A program made the position numbers and the translations under genes. The notes beneath the pieces were generated by a model, which was given only the letters and a program-made list of their open reading frames with translations, was not told the DNA's origin and searched no databases. Below, one piece after another: positions 50,873 through 64,000 of a stretch of DNA of 64,000 nt; positions within the stretch are counted from its first letter, which is position 1; every line of letters starts with the position of its first letter. Origin of the DNA: a virus (lineage: Duplodnaviria; Heunggongvirae; Uroviricota; Caudoviricetes); the IMG/VR virus record IMGVR_UViG_2519899835_000003; one strand, given 5' to 3'.

Positions 50873-51643
50873 TCACTTTTCCGACACAATACGACCGGAT
50901 GAATCGACAATCTGTCGAACAATATCCCGGTGCTTGTTCAGCTCCCGCAGCGCGGCGCAGACTCGCTCCCACTTCTGGACCTGTTTTTTGGCGCGACGAA
51001 GTTCTCGACTGGCAGCATGCAGCGATGGAAGCATCACCGAACTGGCAGATTTTTCGGTGAATGATGGAACTTCTCGGATAAACTCATCTGTACTGGCCTT
51101 TGCCGTGCTCTCTGATGCCAACGGAAAACGATTCATTTCATCGCCTGCCGCGCTGTTTTCTGCGTCATGGTGTGATTGCTTATTCTGCGATGATAAGGCG
51201 CTCAAATCGCCGTTTTCGACATCAGGCATTTTGTAACGGAATTTTCCGTTGCTGATCTCGCGTACCAGGCGTCTCGTTGCTGTTACCACCGCCAACGTGG
51301 AAGCAACCTTACGAGTGCTGACACCGAACTTCCCCGCCAGTTCCTCACAGGTTTTAGCCCCCTCCTGAGAGATAAACTCAATCATCATGTCAGCGCTAAC
51401 TTTTGGAGCGACCTCTTCGGTCAGCATATCCTGTGTTTCAGATTTTACTGGCCGCTCTTCGGTTACCCCGGCTTCACCTTCGACAGCCAGAAACCAGGTG
51501 TGACCCGTTTTATCAACAACGCCATTTTTTTTGAGCTCCCACAGTTCGTTGAGAACTTCTTCACGGCTGATATCAAGCCGCGCCGCCAGTTCAACAGAAT
51601 TGGCTTTTCCCATCGCTTTCAGTGCATGCAATACGGTTTCCAT
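50873..51643 (-). CDS. Hypothetical protein with N-terminal winged-helix-like segment (256 aa)
   Basis: N-terminal ...ANSVELAARLDISREEVLNELWELKKNGVV resembles a wHTH; common partner of O/P-type replication genes in E. coli prophages. Confidence 0.45.
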   Translation of the reverse strand: METVLHALKAMGKANSVELAARLDISREEVLNELWELKKNGVVDKTGHTWFLAVEGEAGVTEERPVKSETQDMLTEEVAPKVSADMMIEFISQEGAKTCEELAGKFGVSTRKVASTLAVVTATRRLVREISNGKFRYKMPDVENGDLSALSSQNKQSHHDAENSAAGDEMNRFPLASESTAKASTDEFIREVPSFTEKSASSVMLPSLHAASRELRRAKKQVQKWERVCAALRELNKHRDIVRQIVDSSGRIVSEK

Positions 51644-51668
51644 CGAAAATTTACCTCGTCAAAAATTC

Positions 51669-52409
51669 TCACATACCCTGACGTCCAACGTTTGACCGCC
51701 AGCTCTCCCAGTTAAAATTCACCCAACGACCACCGTTCATGGTCATCCGGTCCATAATCCTCTCACCAAGAAGCGTGCTCATTGCGGCATGATTCAGGTT
51801 TGTCAGCATCCCGACACTGCGCAGTGATGCCGTCCGGCGGTCAACAATCTGGTGCAGTACCACCTGCTCGTTTTTCGTCTCACGCTGGATGCCAATTTCG
51901 TCAAGAACCAGGAGGTCCACTTCGCACAGTTCACGCAAAAATTTTTCCCCTGACAGTCCGTCGTCATAGCTGGCATGTAACGCGCTCATCACATCCGCCA
52001 CGGTGACCACTATCACGGATTTACCGGCCTTCAGCAGACGATTACCCACAGCCGCCGCCAGATGATTTTTTCCGGTTCCCGGATTCCCGCTGAACACGAA
52101 GTTTGTATAACTGGTCATCAATTCATCGACAATGGATTTCGCCTGGCTCAGAGCATGGCGCTGACCGTCGTTCTGCACCCGGTAGTTCCCGAATGAGCAC
52201 TTCCTGTGAAGCGGCTGGATGCCCGCACGGTTCAGGATTTTTTCAACCCGCGCCTGATGATTCAGGCGGTTAATTTCCTCGCTGCGCTTACGGCCCTCAG
52301 CCAGTTGCCATTCCCGCCATTCGTCGGTCGTCCGGAACGGTGCTGCCACGTGCGGTGGTGCCAGACGGCGCACCCGTTCAAGAATCCCTCCAGTCGAAAT
52401 GTTTTTCAT
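51669..52409 (-). CDS. DnaC-like helicase loader (IstB-type AAA+ ATPase), functional analogue of lambda P
   Basis: Walker A FSGNPGTGKNHLAAAVG and Walker B LLVLDEIG. Confidence 0.8.
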   Translation of the reverse strand: MKNISTGGILERVRRLAPPHVAAPFRTTDEWREWQLAEGRKRSEEINRLNHQARVEKILNRAGIQPLHRKCSFGNYRVQNDGQRHALSQAKSIVDELMTSYTNFVFSGNPGTGKNHLAAAVGNRLLKAGKSVIVVTVADVMSALHASYDDGLSGEKFLRELCEVDLLVLDEIGIQRETKNEQVVLHQIVDRRTASLRSVGMLTNLNHAAMSTLLGERIMDRMTMNGGRWVNFNWESWRSNVGRQGM

Positions 52410-52415
52410 GGCTGA

Positions 52416-53498
52416 TTACCCCCTGAAACCCGGCGGAATTTCGGTGTCCGGTTCAGAAATGTGATTCACGCAACGCAGGCTGACTGCGCCAGCCTTCGGC
52501 AGCGACCACGGATTTTCGAAATTCCTGTTCGGGCCAAAAAACGTCGATGCCTGCTGAACAAATTCAGTTCCCGCTTTCCCGGTAGCCTCCAGGTATCTTG
52601 CGTAACGCCTCACGCCATCCAGCACGACATCCGGTGACACCCCTTCGCGTAATCTGGCCCTCCAGGCATTGAACGCGGATTTCTTCGGGTTTGACCCTGC
52701 CCGATGCGGATATTCACGCCAGACCCGTTCGAACACGTCAGGATAATCAACTCGTCCCGCAGACGGTCCCGGCATCGCCCGGGTTAACCCAATCGGCTTC
52801 CCGCTCATCGCGGAATCGGCTTCAGGCTGCTGCGGTTGGCGTTGTTGCTCCGGTTCGACGATCAGCACCTGCTGCACACAACGCCCGGAATCTGCTTCCG
52901 GTGTCGTGCCAGCTGGTCCTGGACGTTCAGTCAGAACAGGACAAAAATCCCCCTGTGGGTCCGTGGCGATTTTTTCGCCATGGACCAGAAGGGTTTTATC
53001 CCTTTCCTGTTCTTGTTCCTGTTCCTGTTCTTGGCTTGAAAGGGGCTCTGAAGGGGCTTCAATTTTCCGACATGATTCACGTCTGACATCCAGGTGGAAA
53101 TCATCCTTATATCTATCATAAAAGGATGATAAAAAAGGATTTTCCAGCAACGCGGAATATTCATTTCTTACCCCAGCACAACGGTTATCGCCAGGTTTCA
53201 GCGATTCACCAACCTGCCATGCTGCCATTTCATGCACCCATACAACCTCAGAATCATGGTCATAGCTGCAAAAACCAGCCTCGCAAGCCATTTGAAGCCC
53301 CTTAGAAGCCCCTTCAGGATCAAGTCCGGTTTCGTGAGCAATGTACAAAACAGGCAGGTAATAAAGGCCCAGCATATTGGAATGAGGCGAGGTCATCATA
53401 TACAACGCCACTACCATACTTTCCGGACCAGACTTCCTTAGTTTTCGCCCTGTATCGCCTAACCAGAACTGAGGTGAAATTGTTGCGTAATTACGCAT
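52416..53498 (-). CDS. Replication initiation/replisome-organiser protein (O-like)
   Basis: 360 aa immediately upstream of the DnaC-like gene; contains an internal (EQ)n run and a copy of the 60-bp repeat also found upstream of its start. Confidence 0.6.
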   Translation of the reverse strand: MRNYATISPQFWLGDTGRKLRKSGPESMVVALYMMTSPHSNMLGLYYLPVLYIAHETGLDPEGASKGLQMACEAGFCSYDHDSEVVWVHEMAAWQVGESLKPGDNRCAGVRNEYSALLENPFLSSFYDRYKDDFHLDVRRESCRKIEAPSEPLSSQEQEQEQEQERDKTLLVHGEKIATDPQGDFCPVLTERPGPAGTTPEADSGRCVQQVLIVEPEQQRQPQQPEADSAMSGKPIGLTRAMPGPSAGRVDYPDVFERVWREYPHRAGSNPKKSAFNAWRARLREGVSPDVVLDGVRRYARYLEATGKAGTEFVQQASTFFGPNRNFENPWSLPKAGAVSLRCVNHISEPDTEIPPGFRG

Positions 53499-53524
53499 AG
53501 TCCCCTCGCATACAAGATTTACTC

Positions 53525-53695
53525 CATACCGCAGACGGTCCCGGTATCTCCCGGGTTAACCCAATCGGCTTCAGGCTGCTGCGGTTGGTGTGACTGCACA
53601 TTGGTGTGACTGCACATCTTCACAGACGGTCCCGGTATCTCCGGGTTAACCCAATCGGCTTCAGGCTGCTGCGGTTGGTGTTGTTGCTGGCGAAA
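53525..53695. repeat. Two direct copies of a ~60-bp element plus tandem 15-mers between cII and the O-like gene; third copy inside the O-like gene near 52,740-52,850 (approximate)
   Basis: GACGGTCCCGGTATCTCCCGGGTTAACCCAATCGGCTTCAGGCTGCTGCGGTTGGTG occurs twice ~90 bp apart with GGTGTGACTGCACAT x2 between; a near-identical copy lies within the O-like coding sequence. Confidence 0.6.
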
Positions 53696-53751
53696 TTCTT
53701 CCAGATGTGGCAGAATTATTCCCGTGTATTGCTCCATGCCCTGCCTGAATA

Positions 53752-54048
53752 TCAGATGTTCATCAGGATTTGCTCAGAACGTCCGGCCCCAACCGGACGT
53801 TTTTTATTTGCATGAACGTTAATGGCATGCTGGAAAGCCCGGCTGATCGGACTGATATCAGATGCCATCTGGAACGCGCATAAAATCGCCGCGATGTATC
53901 GCCAGTCGGTACGACTGACCTTCGATTCATGGCAGCCAATCATCTTCGCCAGTCCCCTTTGCGTCAGAGCTGACAGGTTGATAAGTAAATCCGTTTCAGC
54001 GCGATCGATATCGCGCTGTGACAGTTTGCTGTAACTTGTTTGTGACAT
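53752..54048 (-). CDS. cII: CII-like transcriptional activator
   Basis: C-terminus ...NKKRPVGAGRSEQILMNI parallels lambda CII ...NKKRPAATERSEQIQMEF; position between cro and O. Confidence 0.65.
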   Translation of the reverse strand: MSQTSYSKLSQRDIDRAETDLLINLSALTQRGLAKMIGCHESKVSRTDWRYIAAILCAFQMASDISPISRAFQHAINVHANKKRPVGAGRSEQILMNI

Positions 54049-54145
54049 TTGTTAATTTTCCTATATTGATATGGGGTTAAGCGGCAATCCCCAATGGGTT
54101 TGCCACTGATGTTTGCTCACCCTGTTAGAGGTGAACGACCAGCAA

Positions 54146-54157
54146 TGTTAAAGAGCG
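54146..54157 (-). promoter_or_regulatory. nutR boxA (CGCTCTTTAACA on minus strand)
   Basis: Perfect boxA consensus 7 nt downstream of the cro stop; followed by a stem-loop (boxB candidate) near 54,120-54,140. Confidence 0.5.
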
Positions 54158-54164
54158 GTGTTAC

Positions 54165-54389
54165 TTATTCAGCCTGGTTCGGATGAGGAAACAGGTGCGG
54201 TAAGTCCGGGCGAATTTCGTAAGCCTTAACCTGACCATTGGTGGCATTAACGATAGCGAAAACTTTTTCAGGAGAAACTTTTCCGCCTCGCAACCATTTA
54301 TGAACAGCGGGCTGTGATACGCCGCAATCAGCTGCAAGTCGTTTTTGACTGCCAACAATATTCAAGGCTCGCTGAATCACTAAATTCAT
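54165..54389 (-). CDS. cro: Cro-like repressor (HTH)
   Basis: 74 aa from second ATG; ...GSQKRLAADCGVSQPAVHKWLRGG HTH; divergent from cI across a 110-bp operator region. Confidence 0.7.
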   Translation of the reverse strand: MNLVIQRALNIVGSQKRLAADCGVSQPAVHKWLRGGKVSPEKVFAIVNATNGQVKAYEIRPDLPHLFPHPNQAE

Positions 54390-54444
54390 GAGCATACCTC
54401 TACAGCAAATAAAGCATAACCAAAAATAACATGAGTTATACACC

Positions 54445-54499
54445 AGGGCAATAACAATTGTTGTTTTACTTTTGATAACCGTGGTTATAGATTACAGGT
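54445..54499. promoter_or_regulatory. OR/PR/PRM region with ATAAC-N4-GTTAT operator palindromes
   Basis: ATAACCGTGGTTAT perfect inverted repeat (about 54,475-54,488) 11 nt before the cI ATG, with related half-sites (ATAACATGAGTTAT, ATAACAATTGTT) upstream. Confidence 0.5.
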
Positions 54500-55207
54500 A
54501 TGAAAACATTCGCAGAAAGACTAAATGCCGCCATGAGTTCAGCCGGGTTGTCACAAGCACAACTTGCAGACATGGTGGGGGTATCACAACCAGCCATACA
54601 AAAGATGTCATCTGGTAAAACAACCGGATCACGTAAAATGGTCGAATTAGCCAACGCGTTAAGAGTTCGCCCTGAATGGCTAAGCTCTGGTATAGGGTCA
54701 ATGAGACCACAGAGCGCAGAAGAGCCATCTAATGCTCGGGAATCATCTTTAAAAGCTATCGCCTGGGATGATCATCAAAATGATAATGAAGAATTTGTTG
54801 CGCTCCCCCTTCTAAATATTTCACTTTCAGCTGGCGGAGGAAGTTGTGCATTGGAGGAGTCCGCAGAATTCTCTCTAGTTTTTAGGCGCTATTACCTGAA
54901 AAAAATGGGAGTTCCAGAAAAAGCGGCAAAGTTGGTCAGGGTTGTTGGGCAAAGCATGGAGCCAACACTCCATGATGGTGATGTGGTGGGGGTAAACACG
55001 CAAGATACGAGCATCAGGGATGGTAAAACATATGCAATTTGCCAAGCTGATTTGTTAAGGGTAAAAACGCTCATAGCCACGCCAACATCGGTAATTATCA
55101 GATCGATAAACCGCGAAGAGTATCCTGATGAAGTAATGAACAGAGAAGAATTCTACAAAAACGTAAGAATCATAGGGCGAGTGTTCTGGTCATCACATAG
55201 CTGGTAA
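54500..55207 (+). CDS. cI: CI-type repressor (N-terminal HTH, C-terminal S24 LexA-like autopeptidase)
   Basis: N-terminal LSQAQLADMVGVSQPAIQKM HTH; C-terminal VVGQSMEPTLHDGDVVGV with catalytic Ser and downstream Lys. Confidence 0.85.
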   Translation: MKTFAERLNAAMSSAGLSQAQLADMVGVSQPAIQKMSSGKTTGSRKMVELANALRVRPEWLSSGIGSMRPQSAEEPSNARESSLKAIAWDDHQNDNEEFVALPLLNISLSAGGGSCALEESAEFSLVFRRYYLKKMGVPEKAAKLVRVVGQSMEPTLHDGDVVGVNTQDTSIRDGKTYAICQADLLRVKTLIATPTSVIIRSINREEYPDEVMNREEFYKNVRIIGRVFWSSHSW

Positions 55208-55360
55208 TCAGACTCCAACTGAACTTTTGCTATAAGAACACTCACGAAGAACGGCCTTTTATTGTGCTCAATACCACCGATGGTAAACCATTCGCCAAGT
55301 AGCCAATTCATAAAATGCCATTTCTAAATCCCCCCGGCTCCAGTGCCGGGTTTTATTTAC

Positions 55361-55582
55361 TTAATTACACAGTCGCATATCCTGAAGTAACACATCTATA
55401 GCTAACTTCACAGCGAGATCATCCAATTCATCATGGTGAAGCACTCGGATCATTCCCGCAATAGCATCTGCTGAAATAGCTTCCCCAGTAGCAATAACCT
55501 CAAGCAACGACACCCCTAGAATTTCGACTACCCGCTGGTGCAACACACCAAATTCCCCTTCGATTAACATGCAATCACCCAT
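55361..55582 (-). CDS. Hypothetical protein encoded antisense between cI and the pL/N region
   Basis: ORF 55361..55627 (alternative start codon at 55627, internal ATG at 55582 taken as start); convergent with cI. Confidence 0.3.
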   Translation of the reverse strand: MGDCMLIEGEFGVLHQRVVEILGVSLLEVIATGEAISADAIAGMIRVLHHDELDDLAVKLAIDVLLQDMRLCN

Positions 55583-55701
55583 AACAATCAGCCTTTCCCC
55601 CTTGAAAATATCACGCGGATACCACAAAAAATAAAATATTTTTGTTATCAGTCATTTATAACGTTTTTCATAAAATGATAAATATAGTTATTGCACAACC
55701 A

Positions 55702-55717
55702 GATAACTTAGGTTATC
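55702..55717. promoter_or_regulatory. OL operator palindrome GATAACTTAGGTTATC (approximate)
   Basis: Same ATAAC/GTTAT half-sites as the OR palindrome, ~50 bp upstream of nutL. Confidence 0.4.
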
Positions 55718-55764
55718 TTCAATTCAACAGCAGGACGCTGGAAGCCAAACGGAACAGATTGGCC

Positions 55765-55805
55765 GGCTCTTTAACATTGATGGACTCTCAACCTAACCGT
55801 TGAGA
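55765..55805 (+). promoter_or_regulatory. nutL: boxA-like GGCTCTTTAACA followed by stem-loop TCTCAAC-CTAACC-GTTGAGA
   Basis: Shares the 13-mer CTCTTTAACATTG with the nutR site; lies ~110 bp upstream of the N-like gene. Confidence 0.5.
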
Positions 55806-55915
55806 CCAAAATCTAAGTGGTTTTGGGGATGACGCGAATTTCAGTTGCAAGGCCGCGATCGAGAAGAAAAACACCTCGACGCGTCATACACCAAAGCCAC
55901 TTAAAGGAGACCATC

Positions 55916-56221
55916 ATGGTAACCATAATCTGGAAAGAATCCAAAGGTACGGCAAAAAGCCGCTATAAAGCTCGCAGGGAAGAACTTATTGCAGAGCGGC
56001 GCAGTAGTGAAAGACTGACACGGAAGATTGCGCTAAAGATCTCTGGTTGCGTCGGAGCAGACAAAGCAGTATCACTCGGAAGCCTTCGCTGCAAGAAGGC
56101 AGAAGAAGTCGAGAGTAAACAGAACCGTATTTACTACCGCAAACCACGCAGTGAAATGGGTGTGACTTGCTCAGGCCGCCAGAAACAACGCGGAAAATCA
56201 ATTCCGGCTTATTACGATTGA
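55916..56221 (+). CDS. Putative antitermination protein N (arginine-rich)
   Basis: First gene after nutL; AAAGGAGA RBS; N-terminal KSRYKARREELIAERRSSERLTRK arginine-rich motif. Confidence 0.45.
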   Translation: MVTIIWKESKGTAKSRYKARREELIAERRSSERLTRKIALKISGCVGADKAVSLGSLRCKKAEEVESKQNRIYYRKPRSEMGVTCSGRQKQRGKSIPAYYD

Positions 56222-58441: not shown

Positions 58442-60514
58442 ATGAGCGCTGATAAACAGACTTTTGCACTACACTGCGAAGCAAAAAACGATAAAGTCAG
58501 AAAACGCCTTGGCATCAAAGGCGGTTTTTTCTGGACCGAGGCCAGAAAACTTTCTGTCGCAGTTTCCCGCTGCATTGCAGCCATGGACGATGCAGGCTAC
58601 GACGAGGATGATTTCAAAAAACCCGTTCGCGTAAATTTCCCCGTCGTGAATGACCTTCCACCGGAAGGCGTGTTTGATACTGAATTCTGCAACCGCTATG
58701 AAAAAGGCGGTAACGATGGCATCACCATGATGGCTATCCCCTTCGATGACAACATCAACGGTGAAGATGCCACAACTGCTGGCGATGACAACGATAACCT
58801 GGACGGAACTATTCCGGATGATGTGGAGAAAAGCGAATCCCCGGACAGCGACGATGACTGTTCTGAGTGTGAAATTCCCGTCGCCACTCTGAGCCTTACT
58901 CATCGCTTCCTTCACCTCTTCTTATTCAGCAAAGATGAAGATGGAAAATACCGGCATCATGCCACACCAGAACAACGCAATAACGTGATCCGTATGGAGA
59001 TGGACACAGAGGACAGTTACCTTCAGAGCCTGCTTACTGCTGTGCGCGCCGCGCATCATGAACTGGATAAACTGACGAACTATCACCTTAGTCGCCTGGC
59101 TGAATCTGTAGGGAAAGCATTCCCCCACTCTGCAAATCATCGCATCAGCCCGGCTGAATTCGACAAGTTCATTTCCACCTGGATGAAAACTGACTACCTT
59201 GATCAGGGCCTGCTGACAAAAGAATGGCAGAACGGAAATTATGTTTCAGGCATTACCCGTACGCCTTCCGGTGCTAACGCTGGCGGCGGAAATATTACCG
59301 ATCGTGGTGAAGGATTCAAACATGATAAGACATCACTCGCACGAGATGTAGCCACCGGCGTTCTGGCCCGTTCAATGGATGTGGATATTTATAACCTGCA
59401 CCCAGCACACGCAAAACGCGTTGAAGAAATCGTGTCAGAGAATAAGCCGCCCTTTTCTGTTTTTCGCGACAAATTTATCGCCATGCCCGGTGGGCTGGAT
59501 TATTCCCGCGCCATTGTGGTGGCTTCCGTGAAAGAAGCACCAATCGGCATTGAGGCCATCCCGGCACGCGTGACTGAATATCTCAACAAAGTGTTGACCG
59601 AAACCGATCACGCTAACCCGGATCCGGAAATCGTGGAAATTGCCTGCGGTCGCTCATCAGCACCGATGCCGCAGCGCGGAACAGCAGAAGGAAAACATGG
59701 CGATGAAGAAAAGCAACAAACATCGGACACAATGGCTAATGAACAGGCAGCGCCTGAATCAGTGGAAGAAATTCCAGTTAAACATAATGAGGACACGCAA
59801 TCACTGGAAAATGTCTCATCTGTAGAAACGAAATACCAGGAACTGAGGGAGGAACTCAATAAAGCCAGGGAAAACATCCCCCCAAAAAATCCAGTCGATG
59901 CCGACAAATTACTGGCTGCCTCGCGTGGAGAATTCGTTGAAGGCATCAGTAACCCTGCTGATCCGAAGTGGGTGAAGGGGATCCAGACTCGCGACACTGA
60001 GGACCAGAATCAGCCCAAAGTGGAACAAATTGCCCCAGAAGCGGGACAAAACAGCCCGGATACGCAACAAAACGGGCCAGAAGAGCAACAGCCAGGGCCA
60101 GTAATGCAACAGGAAGTGGAAAAGGTTTGCACCACATGCAGTCAGAACGGTGGCGGCCATTGCCCTGACTGTGGTCCAGTAATGGGAGATGAAACTTACG
60201 CTGAAACTTTTGGAGAAAATGACGCCGCTGATGGAGAAGACTCAGCACAAACTGAGGAGAAGATCATTCAGGAAAACTCTGTTGATGCCGCTCAGGAGGG
60301 CGAAACCGTTGTTCAGAACGAGCCAGGCAGTGATACGTCCGGCGATGACGCCAATTCTGAGCCAGTAACTCTCGACTGGAAAAGACAGCTCGTGATTGCC
60401 GCCGTCTATGGTTTGTGCGCCAACCCCGCATGTATAGCCACAGCGCCAGCAATCCCTGATATCGCCATCATGATTGCCAACAGGCTTGAAAATTTCGAAG
60501 GTGATAAATCATGA
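58442..60514 (+). CDS. RecE (exonuclease VIII) N-terminal-region homologue lacking the C-terminal nuclease domain (690 aa)
   Basis: Blocks [82 protein letters not shown]...[32 protein letters not shown] recalled as colinear with the dispensable N-terminal ~600 aa of Rac RecE; ORF ends 4 bp into gam. Confidence 0.55.
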
Positions 60515-60807
60515 ATGCCTGGCTTATCCCCGATCGCATTGAAGAGCAGTCATGGGCACGACACTACCAGCAAATTGCCCGTGAAGAAACTGAAGCTGAG
60601 CTGGCAGACGACCTGGAAAAAGGTCTGCCCCAACACCTGTTTGAATCGCTATGCATCGATAATCTGCAACGTCACGGGGCCAGCAAAAAAGCTATTTCCC
60701 GTGCATTTGATGACGATGTCGATTTTCAGGAACGCATGGCAGAACACATCCGCTACATGGCTGAAACCATCGCCCGTCACCAAATTAATATTGATTCAGA
60801 GGTATAA
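60511..60807 (+). CDS. gam: Gam (RecBCD inhibitor), short form
   Basis: [26 protein letters not shown]...[26 protein letters not shown] is near-identical to lambda Gam. Confidence 0.85.
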
Positions 60808-60812
60808 AACGG

Positions 60813-61598
60813 ATGAGTACAGCACTCGCAACGCTGGCAGGGAAGCTGGCTGAACGTGTCGGCATGGATTCTGTCGACCCACAGGAACTAATCACCACTC
60901 TTCGCCAGACGGCATTTAAAGGTGATGCCAGCGATGCGCAATTTATCGCATTGTTGATCGTCGCCAACCAGTACGGCCTTAATCCCTGGACGAAAGAAAT
61001 TTACGCCTTCCCTGACAAGCAGAACGGCATCGTTCCGGTGGTTGGCGTTGATGGCTGGTCCCGCATTATCAATGAAAACCAGCAGTTTGATGGCATGGAC
61101 TTTGAGCAGGACAATGAGTCCTGTACATGCCGGATTTACCGCAAAGATCGCAATCACCCGATCTGCGTTACCGAGTGGATGGATGAATGTCGCCGCGCAC
61201 CATTCAAAACCCGCGAAGGCAGAGAAATCACCGGACCGTGGCAGTCGCATCCCAAACGGATGTTACGGCACAAAGCCATGATTCAGTGTGCTCGCCTGGC
61301 CTTCGGATTTGCTGGCATCTATGACAAGGATGAAGCCGAGCGTATTGTCGAAAATACTGCATATACTACAGAACGTCAGCCGGAACGCGACATCACCCCG
61401 GTTAACGAAGAAACCATGTCGGAAATTAACGCCCTTCTTACTTCCATGGAAAAAACGTGGGATGACGACCTGTTGCCGCTCTGTTCCCAGATTTTTCGCC
61501 GCAACATTTACACATCTTCAGAACTAACACAGGCTGAAGCTGTGAAGGTTCTTGGATTCCTGAAACAGAAAGTCACAGAGCAGAAGGTAGCAGCATGA
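60813..61598 (+). CDS. bet: Bet (Red-beta single-strand annealing protein)
   Basis: [48 protein letters not shown]... essentially lambda Bet. Confidence 0.9.
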
Positions 61599-62272
61599 CA
61601 CCGGACATTATCCTGCAACGTACAGGGATCGACGTGAGAGCTGTCGAACAGGGGGATGATGCGTGGCACAAATTACGGCTCGGCGTCATCACCGCTTCAG
61701 AAGTTCACAACGTGATAGCAAAACCCCGCTCAGGAAAGAAATGGCCTGACATGAAAATGTCCTACTTCCACACCCTGCTGGCTGAGGTTTGCACCGGTGT
61801 GGCTCCGGAAGTTAACGCTAAAGCGCTGGCCTGGGGAAAACAGTACGAGAACGACGCCAGAGCCCTCTTTGAGTTCACTTCCGGCGTGAATGTTACTGAA
61901 TCCCCGATCATCTATCGCGACGAAAGTATGCGCACCGCTTGCTCTCCCGATGGTTTATGCAGTGACGGCAACGGCCTTGAACTGAAATGCCCGTTTACCT
62001 CCCGGGATTTCATGAAATTCCGGCTCGGTGGTTTCGAGGCAATAAAATCGGCTTACATGGCCCAGGTGCAGTACAGCATGTGGGTGACGCGAAAAGATGC
62101 CTGGTACTTTGCCAACTATGACCCGCGCATGAAGCGTGAAGGCCTGCATTATGTCGTGATTGAGCGGAATGAAAAGTACATGGCGAGTTTTGACGAGATG
62201 GTGCCGGAGTTCATCGAAAAAATGGACGAGGCACTGGCTGAAATTGGTTTTGTATTTGGGGAGCAATGGTGA
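61595..62272 (+). CDS. exo: Exo (Red-alpha 5'-3' exonuclease)
   Basis: [68 protein letters not shown]... essentially lambda Exo. Confidence 0.9.
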
Positions 62273-62609: not shown

Positions 62610-62981
62610 ATGGATTCACACAGTATCACCCTCAAAGAGGCCTGTAAGTTTCTCAAGATATCAAGGCCAACAGCTGTTAACTGGATACGAACGGGCCGAC
62701 TACAGGCAACCCGAAAAAATTCTTCCGGTAAAAGATCACCTTATCTCACAACCCGGCAAGCCTGCATTGCAGCACTTCATTCACCGCTGCATACTGTCCA
62801 GGTGAGCGCGGGTGATGGCATAACAGAGGAAAGAAAATGTCACTCTTCCGCAGAGGTGAAATATGGTACGCCTCGTACTCGCTCCCGGGCGGGAAGCGAA
62901 TTAAGGAGTCTCTTGGCACAAAGGACAAGCGGCAAGCTCAGGAGTTGCACGACAAGCGAAAAGCAGAACTCTGGCGAGTAG
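62610..62981 (+). CDS. xis: Putative excisionase (HTH); 3' extent uncertain, frame overlaps int by ~145 bp
   Basis: Internal ATG; [31 protein letters not shown] directly upstream of int. Confidence 0.45.
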
Positions 62982-64000
62982 ACAGACTGGGGGATATGCC
63001 AGATGTCACTTTCGAAGAAGCCTGCCTGAGATGGCTTGAGGAAAAAGCCGACAAGAAATCCATCGATTCCGATAAATCCAGAATCGCATTCTGGATTGAG
63101 CATTTCGAGGGAATAAGGATTAAGGATATATCGGAGGCAATGATCTACTCAGTTATCAGCAAAGCGTATAACCGAAAAACAAAGGAGAGATGGAAGTTGC
63201 AGGTGGAGGCTGCATTAAGAAAAGGGAAAGAACCACCAGCCTATATACCTAAATCGGTGAGCACGCAAACAAAAGCAACACACCTGGCAATGATCAAGGC
63301 TATTCTGCGCGCCGCAGAGCGAGACTGGAAATGGCTTGAAAAAGCACCTGTAATCAAAATACCTGCCGTAAAAAACAAACGCGTGAGATGGCTGGAAAAA
63401 GAAGAAGCCAGGAGACTCATTGATGCATGTTCTGATCCCCTGAAATCTGTAGTTAAATTTGCACTGGCAACTGGCCTGAGGAGATCAAACATTATTAATC
63501 TGGAGTGGCAACAAATCGATATGCAGCGACGTGTTGCCTGGGTAAACCCTGAAGACAGTAAGTCAAACCGCGCTATTGGGGTCGCACTGAATGACACTGC
63601 CTGCAAGGTGTTGCGTGATCAAATAGGCAAACATCACCGCTGGGTGTTTGTTTATACCACTGCTGCCAGAAGGCCTGACGGGACAATGACACCAAGCATC
63701 AGAAAGATGCGCCTGGACTATAACACATCGTGGTTAACAGCATGTCGTCGGGCAGGAATTGAAAATTTCCGTTTTCATGACCTCCGCCATACCTGGGCCA
63801 GTTGGTTAATTCAGTCAGGTGTACCACTGTCAGTACTTCAGGAAATGGGCGGCTGGGAGTCTATCGAAATGGTGCGTAGGTACGCACACCTTGCACCTAA
63901 TCATTTGACAGAGCACGCGAGGAAAATTGACGACATATTGGGTGACGATGTCCCAAATTTGTCCCACCCTGAGGTTTTTGAGGATGCAAAGAAAGCATAA
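62837..64000 (+). CDS. int: Tyrosine integrase
   Basis: [36 protein letters not shown]-terminus; C-terminal R...HDLRHTWAS...RRYAHL catalytic block (R-H-R-Y); stop at window end. Confidence 0.85.

Follow-up and report, generated by a model that had tools for sequence, protein, structure and literature searches.

Results

The locus and its repeats

We describe a block of repeated DNA in a lambdoid prophage held in IMG/VR as record IMGVR_UViG_2519899835_000003 (Caudoviricetes), of which a stretch of 64,000 nucleotides, hereafter the window, was analyzed. The block lies in the early-right operon, whose genes are on the minus strand, between a lambda-type cII and the gene that occupies the position of the replication gene O, and consists of two copies of an element whose third copy lies inside that gene. 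The nearest annotated phages are PhiR5_2, phiSTEC1589-Stx1c, POCJ13 and 75/02 Stx, with 98-99% identity. The features on which the argument turns are the following.

52416-53498, minus strand: replication initiator gene in the O position, 360 aa, phrog_1701 DnaD-like helicase loader
52757-52849, minus strand: E3, the internal copy (local alignment), coding for an inter-domain linker (QQRQPQQPEADSAMSGKPIGLTRAMPGPSAG)
53519-53737, minus strand: 72-aa open reading frame (ORF) of the public annotation, phrog_2751 "hypothetical protein"
53529-53591, minus strand: E2, the upstream copy nearest the start of the replication gene, with the longest 3' homology to E3 (CCGTCTGCGG)
53585-53616, no strand: two tandem 16-mers (TTGGTGTGACTGCACA), the bulk of the 32-nt spacer between units
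53623-53688, minus strand: E1, the upstream copy nearest cII, with the longest 5' homology to E3 (GCAACAAC)
53688-53751, minus strand: unique 5' part of the leader, homologous to the lambda cII-O intergenic region and the first nine codons of O; it holds the position of lambda pO on the opposite strand
53752-54048, minus strand: lambda-type cII (Pfam Phage_CII, E = 6.5e-26), directly upstream of the leader

A previous examination of these letters alone, the sequence-only reading, had proposed an element of about 60 bp present once in the gene and twice upstream of it, and local alignment bore this out close to where the copies had been placed. The element is 58-66 bp long, except in E3, which has 23 extra bases (about 52801-52823) with a copy of the direct repeat AATCGGCTTC on each side. 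Apart from a 1-nt indel, a deletion in E1 relative to E2, the two upstream copies agree at all 59 of their 59 aligned bases, and by local alignment each is 95% identical to E3 once the 23-nt insertion is excluded; the duplicated segment thus stems from the interior of the adjacent gene, as is expected of a duplicate left at a mosaic joint. A 20-mer of the element, GGGTTAACCCAATCGGCTTC, is found exactly three times in the 64 kb, where 0.01 occurrences would be expected. Upstream, the copies follow one another head to tail in an array whose period is 90 bp (an element of about 58 bp plus a 32-bp spacer), each unit contains the 10-bp palindrome GGGTTAACCC, and E3 lies about 770 bp from the array. 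The tandem pair described between the upstream copies is present and perfect, although its units are 16-mers and not 15-mers; it was the only repeat reported by TRF, because the window holds about 1.7 units of the larger one. Similarly, the 250-bp gap given between cII and the start of the replication gene is real (253 bp, 53499-53751), but it is occupied by the annotated 72-aa ORF.

The sequence-only reading had called the replication gene O-like, and homology to lambda O was not borne out. Its best PHROG is phrog_1701 (DnaD-like helicase loader), with residues 1-188, the N-terminal domain, matching phrog_25210 and residues 158-360, a C-terminal DnaT-like module, matching phrog_3729; Pfam gave no match at E <= 0.01, Pfam and NCBIfam together gave nothing significant, and a DnaC-like gene follows downstream. 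Judged by this domain content, the gene is O-like by position only, falling outside Phage_rep_O, and is not a homologue of lambda O.

The array sits on a joint between modules

The 3' end of cII and a plus-strand terminator hairpin align well with the oop terminator of lambda. Beyond the cII stop the homology of the leader to lambda had to be brought out by anchored alignment and shuffling: 30 of 50 ungapped positions match (shuffles averaged 21 with a maximum of 28, and 0/2000 reached 30), and the match spans the cII-O spacer and codons 1-9 of O, in frame with codons 9-17 of the small ORF. A sensitive blastn search of the unique part of the leader against phages returned six close relatives only. 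Similarity to lambda stops at about 53688, exactly where similarity to E3 starts. It is thus at the left edge of the array that a lambda-type O 5' end meets the non-lambda linker, the flanks being modules of different ancestry with a definable junction. Among the explanations offered by the sequence-only reading, a footprint of recombination between O alleles is supported in a modified form: the array lies on a recombination joint, but the partners are a lambda-type O 5' end and a non-lambda initiator gene.

Next to the array, on the other strand, lies a counterpart of the lambda oop RNA.

53720-53812, plus strand: oop-like antisense RNA region with two hairpins, the second being a terminator over the cII 3' end that is homologous to the lambda oop terminator

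The terminator hairpin (53776-53803) is followed by a T run, and the two-hairpin fold is better than that of shuffled sequences (z = -3.6). In the alignment, the window has CAGAAT (about 53711-53716) where lambda pO has its -10 hexamer, CATAAT; the -35 counterpart is a poor one, and a consensus promoter scan made no call there. As in lambda, therefore, there is a conserved terminator hairpin over the cII 3' end, a significant two-hairpin fold and an aligned pO position, but here the oop-like region is a neighbour of the repeat block and not part of it. An Rfam scan of 51000-56000 at E <= 1 returned no family for the oop-like RNA or for the array, and one sub-threshold match, to the plant microRNA precursor MIR7532 (52928-53021, plus strand; 28 bits against a gathering threshold of 100, E = 0.077), which overlaps a hairpin-forming stretch beside a QE-coding repeat of the replication gene and is almost certainly due to chance.

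Copy number among related prophages

Of 5,426 complete E. coli genomes, 82 matched the array block in a sensitive search, with matches of differing lengths; the N-terminal allele of the window is carried by 78 of these complete genomes and the array by 78-82. Another 47 loci were obtained from IMG/VR and metagenomes with the unique left flank as exact anchor, giving 57 anchored loci in total; the same anchor had no match among the GTDB species representatives, and the hosts of the near-identical prophages surveyed (about 60) are E. coli and Shigella. Two units are present at 41 of the 57 loci, with one identical 244-nt allele in 38 of those, and one unit at 11, in three alleles, one of which is a recombinant of unit 1 and unit 2. 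Three 90-bp units (L010) and three 113-bp units with a 23-nt insertion in each (L011, the complete genome 23CRST047) were found at one locus apiece, and deletion joints, described below, at two. Among complete genomes, G6/7 and SW070917 have one unit and TOE17 has three. Variation extends to the nested 16-mer, present in five copies in the protein variant P0002, and the protein variants also include one-unit arrays carrying the 23-nt insertion. Arrays of one and two units occur on identical cII and initiator haplotypes in at least three backgrounds, and the copy-number changes have therefore been recurrent. The upstream block, being head-to-tail and recurrently polymorphic in copy number, is a variable-number tandem repeat (VNTR). 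Since repeats in short-read data may collapse, these core conclusions lean on the complete genomes.

The replication gene contains a second, in-frame VNTR, a CARGAR hexanucleotide repeat (52999-53033 of the window, minus strand) that codes for a QEQEQE linker and varies from three to eight repeats among otherwise near-identical loci; the gene lengths of 1077, 1083 and 1089 bp in close phages differ because of it. In E. coli G6/7 (NZ_CP060061.1, locus 914-2019), which has a one-unit array, the QE repeat has seven units and the replication gene is called a frameshifted pseudogene by RefSeq.

Exchange with the internal copy was also seen. In 23CRST047 a GATGCC variant and the insertion are common to all four copies, although the genes on either side retain 96-99% identity with the window, a pattern suggestive of the array having been converted by the internal copy. 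Concerted evolution of the upstream and internal copies as a rule was considered and rejected, one and the same 244-nt array allele coexisting with five internal alleles, GATGCC included; to judge from these alleles, exchange does occur, but there is no steady homogenisation. At two of the 57 loci fusion of an upstream unit with the internal copy has removed the 5' two thirds of the replication gene, the crossover point differing between the two. In E. coli SW071619 (L009, NZ_CM129853.1) the fusion is out of frame and annotated as a pseudogene, the RefSeq residue being described as "missing N-terminus", while in the metagenome contig ERZ791741 NODE-9481 (L048) the small ORF continues in frame into the C-terminal DnaT-like domain. 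From their sequences, the two deletions are independent-looking.

Restriction to one lineage

The sequence-only reading had advised comparison with the replication regions of related prophages, and the result speaks against reading the copies as iterons. We compared 80 loci encoding relatives of the N-terminal domain: all 31 loci with the allele of the window have the array, and among the 49 whose N-terminal domain is 72-80% identical there is no 13-mer common to the gene body and the 500 nt upstream (0/49). In Tritos, 640R1 and OkiPb01711, whose N-termini are unrelated, the internal element is present as ordinary linker-coding sequence and there are no upstream copies. Conversely, relatives with the same N-terminal domain and another C-terminal module do not have the motif GAAGCCGATT, which corresponds to the PEAD(S) codons of the linker. 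The element therefore travels with the linker and C-terminal module, and not with the presumed DNA-binding domain.

Nucleotide diversity (pi) is about 0.0006 in the array and about 0.025 in the adjacent cII. That this marks constraint on the array was considered and rejected, because proper alignment shows the low-diversity block to span the region coding for the N-terminal domain as well, and the two therefore belong to one recently spread mosaic module.

The space upstream of the replication gene is filled differently in other relatives. Those of the L092 type have an unannotated gap of about 217 nt between a YdaT-like gene and the replication gene, and those of the L118 type have a small Cys-rich ORF (CSFCG...CQKC, zinc-ribbon-like) that ends 14 nt upstream of it.

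The iteron question

The sequence-only reading had assumed that the triplicated copies correspond to the iterons of the gene. The iterons of lambda are 19-bp imperfect inverted repeats that lie beside an AT-rich tract in the middle of O and are bound by O; there are four of them in lambda and six in the Stx phages P27 and 933W (PMC7466680). The element described here resembles them in being repeated DNA tied to the replication-initiator gene of a lambdoid prophage, but differs from them in several ways. It consists of 58-66-bp copies spaced 90 and 770 bp apart rather than of short phased repeats (about 11-22 bp), its sole short internal repeat being AATCGGCTTC, twice within E3; GC content is 0.55-0.60 across 53520-53700, with no AT-rich tract adjoining; and across relatives the upstream copies are not co-inherited with the presumed DNA-binding domain at the N-terminus. 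As to the proposals that the copies are extra initiator-binding sites or an origin-based incompatibility element, neither found support on this structural and comparative evidence, which describes a G+C-rich linker-coding piece, repeated upstream in 0/49 relatives and drifting in copy number from one to three.

Another repeat of the gene fits the description of iterons far better. An 11-bp unit, (G/T)AAGGGGCTT(C/T), is present in every relative sampled (it was noted in L092, L095, L135, L115 and L118 besides the window), with two tandem units at about nucleotide 184 of the gene and two or three at about 438-472, and exact copies of it occur nowhere else in the window.

53294-53315, minus strand (coding strand): candidate iteron cluster 1, two tandem 11-bp units, GAAGGGGCTTC and TAAGGGGCTTC
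53100-53159: AT-rich minimum between the clusters, candidate unwinding region, GC 0.32 (0.23 in the lowest 40-nt window)
53040-53062, plus strand: candidate iteron cluster 2, two 11-bp units, inverted relative to the cluster of the relatives

Owing to the 11-bp period the copies are read in different frames, so that VRGFEGAFKGLRS of L092 represents three units in three frames, and because cluster 2 of the window is inverted, EAPSEPL is encoded there and not EGASKGL. Initiator sites would be expected to keep their DNA sequence whatever the frame or orientation, as is seen here, and the 11-bp units are accordingly put forward as the more plausible candidate iterons; they match the lambda description (PMC7466680) where the element does not, and the assumption that the triplicated copies are the iterons of the gene is probably wrong. 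No mapped origin was found in the literature for this replicon type, and this module is not covered by the paper on Eru replication types (PMC8044961).

AATCGGCTTC differs from the candidate iteron core AAGGGGCTTC in two of ten positions, and seven of the eight matches to AANNGGCTTC in the window fall between 52791 and 53662. As a link between the element and the iterons, AANNGGCTTC was rejected, given that the motif was defined post hoc and that 11-mer matches with at most two mismatches are at the level of chance (20 against 16.7 +/- 3.9).

The annotated small ORF

The small ORF begins at a distance of 14 nt from the cII stop, a weak Shine-Dalgarno-like AGGG preceding it. Its length is 42, 72 or 102 aa with one, two or three units, the 90-bp period keeping it in frame. 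The initiator ATG lies 20 nt beyond its stop in the common alleles, and alleles shifted by 1 nt have the stop 4 nt past that ATG. Among 5.8 billion proteins its homologues form 10 clusters of 42-102 aa, all of E. coli, that share the first 28 residues or so and then differ by frame; none was found beyond the E. coli lineage, and there was no match in Pfam or NCBIfam. In 23CRST047 the frame stops within unit 1, RefSeq annotates nothing across 410 bp, and amino-acid changes (E to V, Q to K) are among the differences of its unique part; in this genome and in variant P0009 the early stop leaves about 300 nt untranslated. A frame that diverges after residue 28 or thereabouts and stops early in a close relative is not that of a conserved gene, and from its composition the 72-aa ORF is best read as a chimeric accidental frame across a lambda-type O' remnant and the repeat units. 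That its 5' part is conserved may be due to the pO/oop region, which lies on the opposite strand.

The sequence-only reading had allowed that the upstream copies might belong, in related phages, to a longer intact alternative N-terminus; no homologue above 102 aa exists among the 5.8 billion proteins. By their reading frame, the upstream copies are nevertheless decayed coding sequence, E2 being read by the small ORF in the linker frame of the relatives (WVNPGDTGTVCG against RVVPENTGQSVG), which we take as the ancestral one. The resident gene reads the linker stretch one frame over because of compensating -1/+1 indels: at 52757-52823 (minus strand) 17 codons are in the other frame (SGKPIGLTRAMPGPSAG against QREADRVVPENTGQPVG in genes of the Tritos and L092 types), with the total length unchanged. 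Such a compensated frameshift suggests that the linker sequence is barely constrained.

Neighboring genes

The remaining genes around the locus are the following.

50873-51643: DUF1627 gene
51669-52409: DnaC/IstB-like ATPase gene, downstream of the replication gene
54165-54443: Cro/YdaS-like gene
54500-55207, plus strand: CI-like repressor gene

The pL arm also encodes an N-like protein, a 690-aa exonuclease-family protein (58442-60514), a lambda Red-type module with a Gam-like protein, a Bet-like annealing protein and an exonuclease (60511-62272, plus strand), and an integrase (62837-64000, plus strand).

Discussion

The array is most likely a mosaic-joint duplicate that became an unstable minisatellite and has no dedicated function, and we hold this explanation with good, though not full, confidence. 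According to it, a lambda-type cII-oop-O' segment would have been fused to a non-lambda module made up of the DnaD-like initiator and the DnaC-like loader, and a partial duplicate of the linker-coding segment of the initiator would have been left at the recombination joint, later to expand into a short tandem array. The 58-66-bp units and the nested 16-mers would then change in number by slippage or unequal crossing-over, exchange with the internal copy would carry variants such as the 23-nt insertion into the array, and crossing-over between an upstream unit and the internal copy would delete the 5' two thirds of the initiator gene together with the candidate origin, disabling the replication module. 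The phage's own Red-type recombinase is a plausible driver of these events, about 30 bp having been cited as near the minimum homology for Red-beta (PMC3945230). The repeat structure, the place of the joint, the copy-number changes on identical backgrounds, the unit recombinant, the deletion products, the confinement to a single lineage and the instability of the ORF are seen directly in the sequences; the order of the events that created the duplicate, the part played by the recombinase and the absence of a function are what we infer from them.

Some observations weigh against this explanation. An exact scan of IMG/VR for the source of the 32-nt spacer returned matches in the same loci only, which leaves the pathway of formation incomplete. 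The array is never missing from this allele lineage, so that it can only be presumed dispensable, and the identity of the 244-nt two-unit allele in 38 loci, despite their diverse cII, can be read as constraint, although a recent common origin of the module explains it better. Moreover, those one-unit forms that come from short-read drafts or low-coverage metagenomes, and the junction of L048, itself a low-coverage short-read contig, may be assembly collapses.

Control iterons are known outside the origins of plasmids and phages, those of P1 incA and F incC being of this type. The upstream units could likewise be auxiliary low-affinity initiator sites, titrating or handcuffing the initiator in order to tune replication or to exclude related phages, with copy number as the knob. 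Such a role would agree with the constant linkage of the array to one N-terminal allele, inside the same low-diversity block, with the presence in each unit of the palindrome GGGTTAACCC and of AATCGGCTTC, eight of whose ten positions agree with AAGGGGCTTC, with the clustering of the AANNGGCTTC matches, and with the inhibition of related phages by lambda plasmids that carry oop and iterons (PMC3349717). However, AANNGGCTTC was derived after the data had been seen and the 11-mer matches are at chance level; both mismatches to AAGGGGCTTC hit a G-tract that is invariant in the candidate iterons given above; and GAAGCCGATT is merely the PEAD(S) codons of the linker, found also in Tritos-type genes with unrelated N-termini and absent from relatives that have the same N-terminal domain with another C-terminal module. 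The size, period and base composition of the units, with no AT-rich tract adjoining, are not those of iterons either, the relatives manage without upstream units, and copy number drifts on identical backgrounds. We therefore consider auxiliary sites unlikely. A bolder version, in which the array would be a set of weak initiator sites of variable copy number, lying after pR/cII and ahead of the initiator gene and serving to titrate the initiator, to handcuff it or to let it block its own transcription, so that one to three units tune replication and superinfection exclusion, seems very unlikely to us, but if it were true the array would be a contingency-type control element for a phage origin.

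It is also quite unlikely, in our opinion, that the small ORF is functional, either as a short protein or as a leader ORF that carries ribosomes from cII to the initiator start with repeat number and frame acting as a switch. Its place just behind the cII stop and a weak AGGG, its continuity through one, two or three units, the closeness of its stop to the initiator ATG on either side, and its annotation in every close relative, with a PHROG of its own, speak for such a function. Against it stand a sequence that depends on the frame past residue 28 or so and therefore differs between isolates, the early stops in 23CRST047 and P0009 and the amino-acid changes in the former, and the failure to find homologues outside the E. 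coli lineage or any Pfam or NCBIfam family; its first codons are left over from the leader of lambda O, and the opposite strand can explain the conservation of its 5' part. An action at the level of RNA or transcription, as a structured element of the pR transcript or an antisense element modulating the expression of cII, oop or the initiator, is in our view highly improbable. The antisense strand of the array, which lies directly upstream of the pO-equivalent position, does fold somewhat better than shuffled sequences (z = -2.1, with 7/200 as good), pairing the palindromic GGGTTAACCC segments of the two units, but the fold of the sense leader mRNA is unremarkable (z = -0.8), no Rfam family and no terminator-like site on the sense strand were found in the array, the oop-like RNA lies outside it, and the common one-unit arrays are incapable of pairing between units.

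As a mosaic-joint duplicate turned minisatellite, the array adds one more case to two known phenomena, the mosaic joint and the VNTR, and belongs to ordinary mosaic-joint biology; no published description of this particular repeat was found in the literature. The module joints described in phages in 2014 (PMC3945230, whose references include earlier work by Martinsohn 2008 and Clark 2001) share with it a sharp switch of ancestry, short homology at the boundary and a Red-type recombinase able to use short or diverged homology. In the present case, by contrast, part of the interior of the incoming gene is retained at the joint as a direct duplicate, subsequently amplified with a spacer, and the direct repeats bracket, and can delete, most of the initiator gene. 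Bacterial and phage minisatellites are similar in their head-to-tail units, in copy numbers that differ among near-identical genomes, in recombinant units and, here, in the nested variable 16-mer; the unit of this one, unlike theirs, copies coding sequence of a neighboring essential replication gene, and because of that the array also recombines with a dispersed third copy 770 bp away. Control iterons and the "inhibition phenotype" of the lambda oop-ori region (PMC3349717) likewise concern repeats related to the replication region that lie outside the origin proper, but control iterons copy the initiator-binding repeats of the origin itself, and the units here are not copies of the candidate iterons.

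The locus offers a clean worked example of how a module joint in Stx-converting and related prophages, among them POCJ13, 75/02 Stx, phiSTEC1589 and a prophage of O104:H4 strains, has left behind repeats that drive copy-number change. Annotators of these genomes should not take phrog_2751, the "hypothetical protein" that separates cII from the replication gene, for a conserved gene, and those who assemble them from short reads should be aware that the 90-bp array may come out collapsed. Now and then the repeats also cause the initiator gene to be deleted, one concrete way for a prophage to lose its capacity to replicate. Finally, the 11-bp repeats and the AT-rich patch between them provide a testable origin candidate for a widespread and uncharacterised DnaD-like/DnaC-type replication module of Stx phages, and this candidate is a more useful lead than the array and may matter more.

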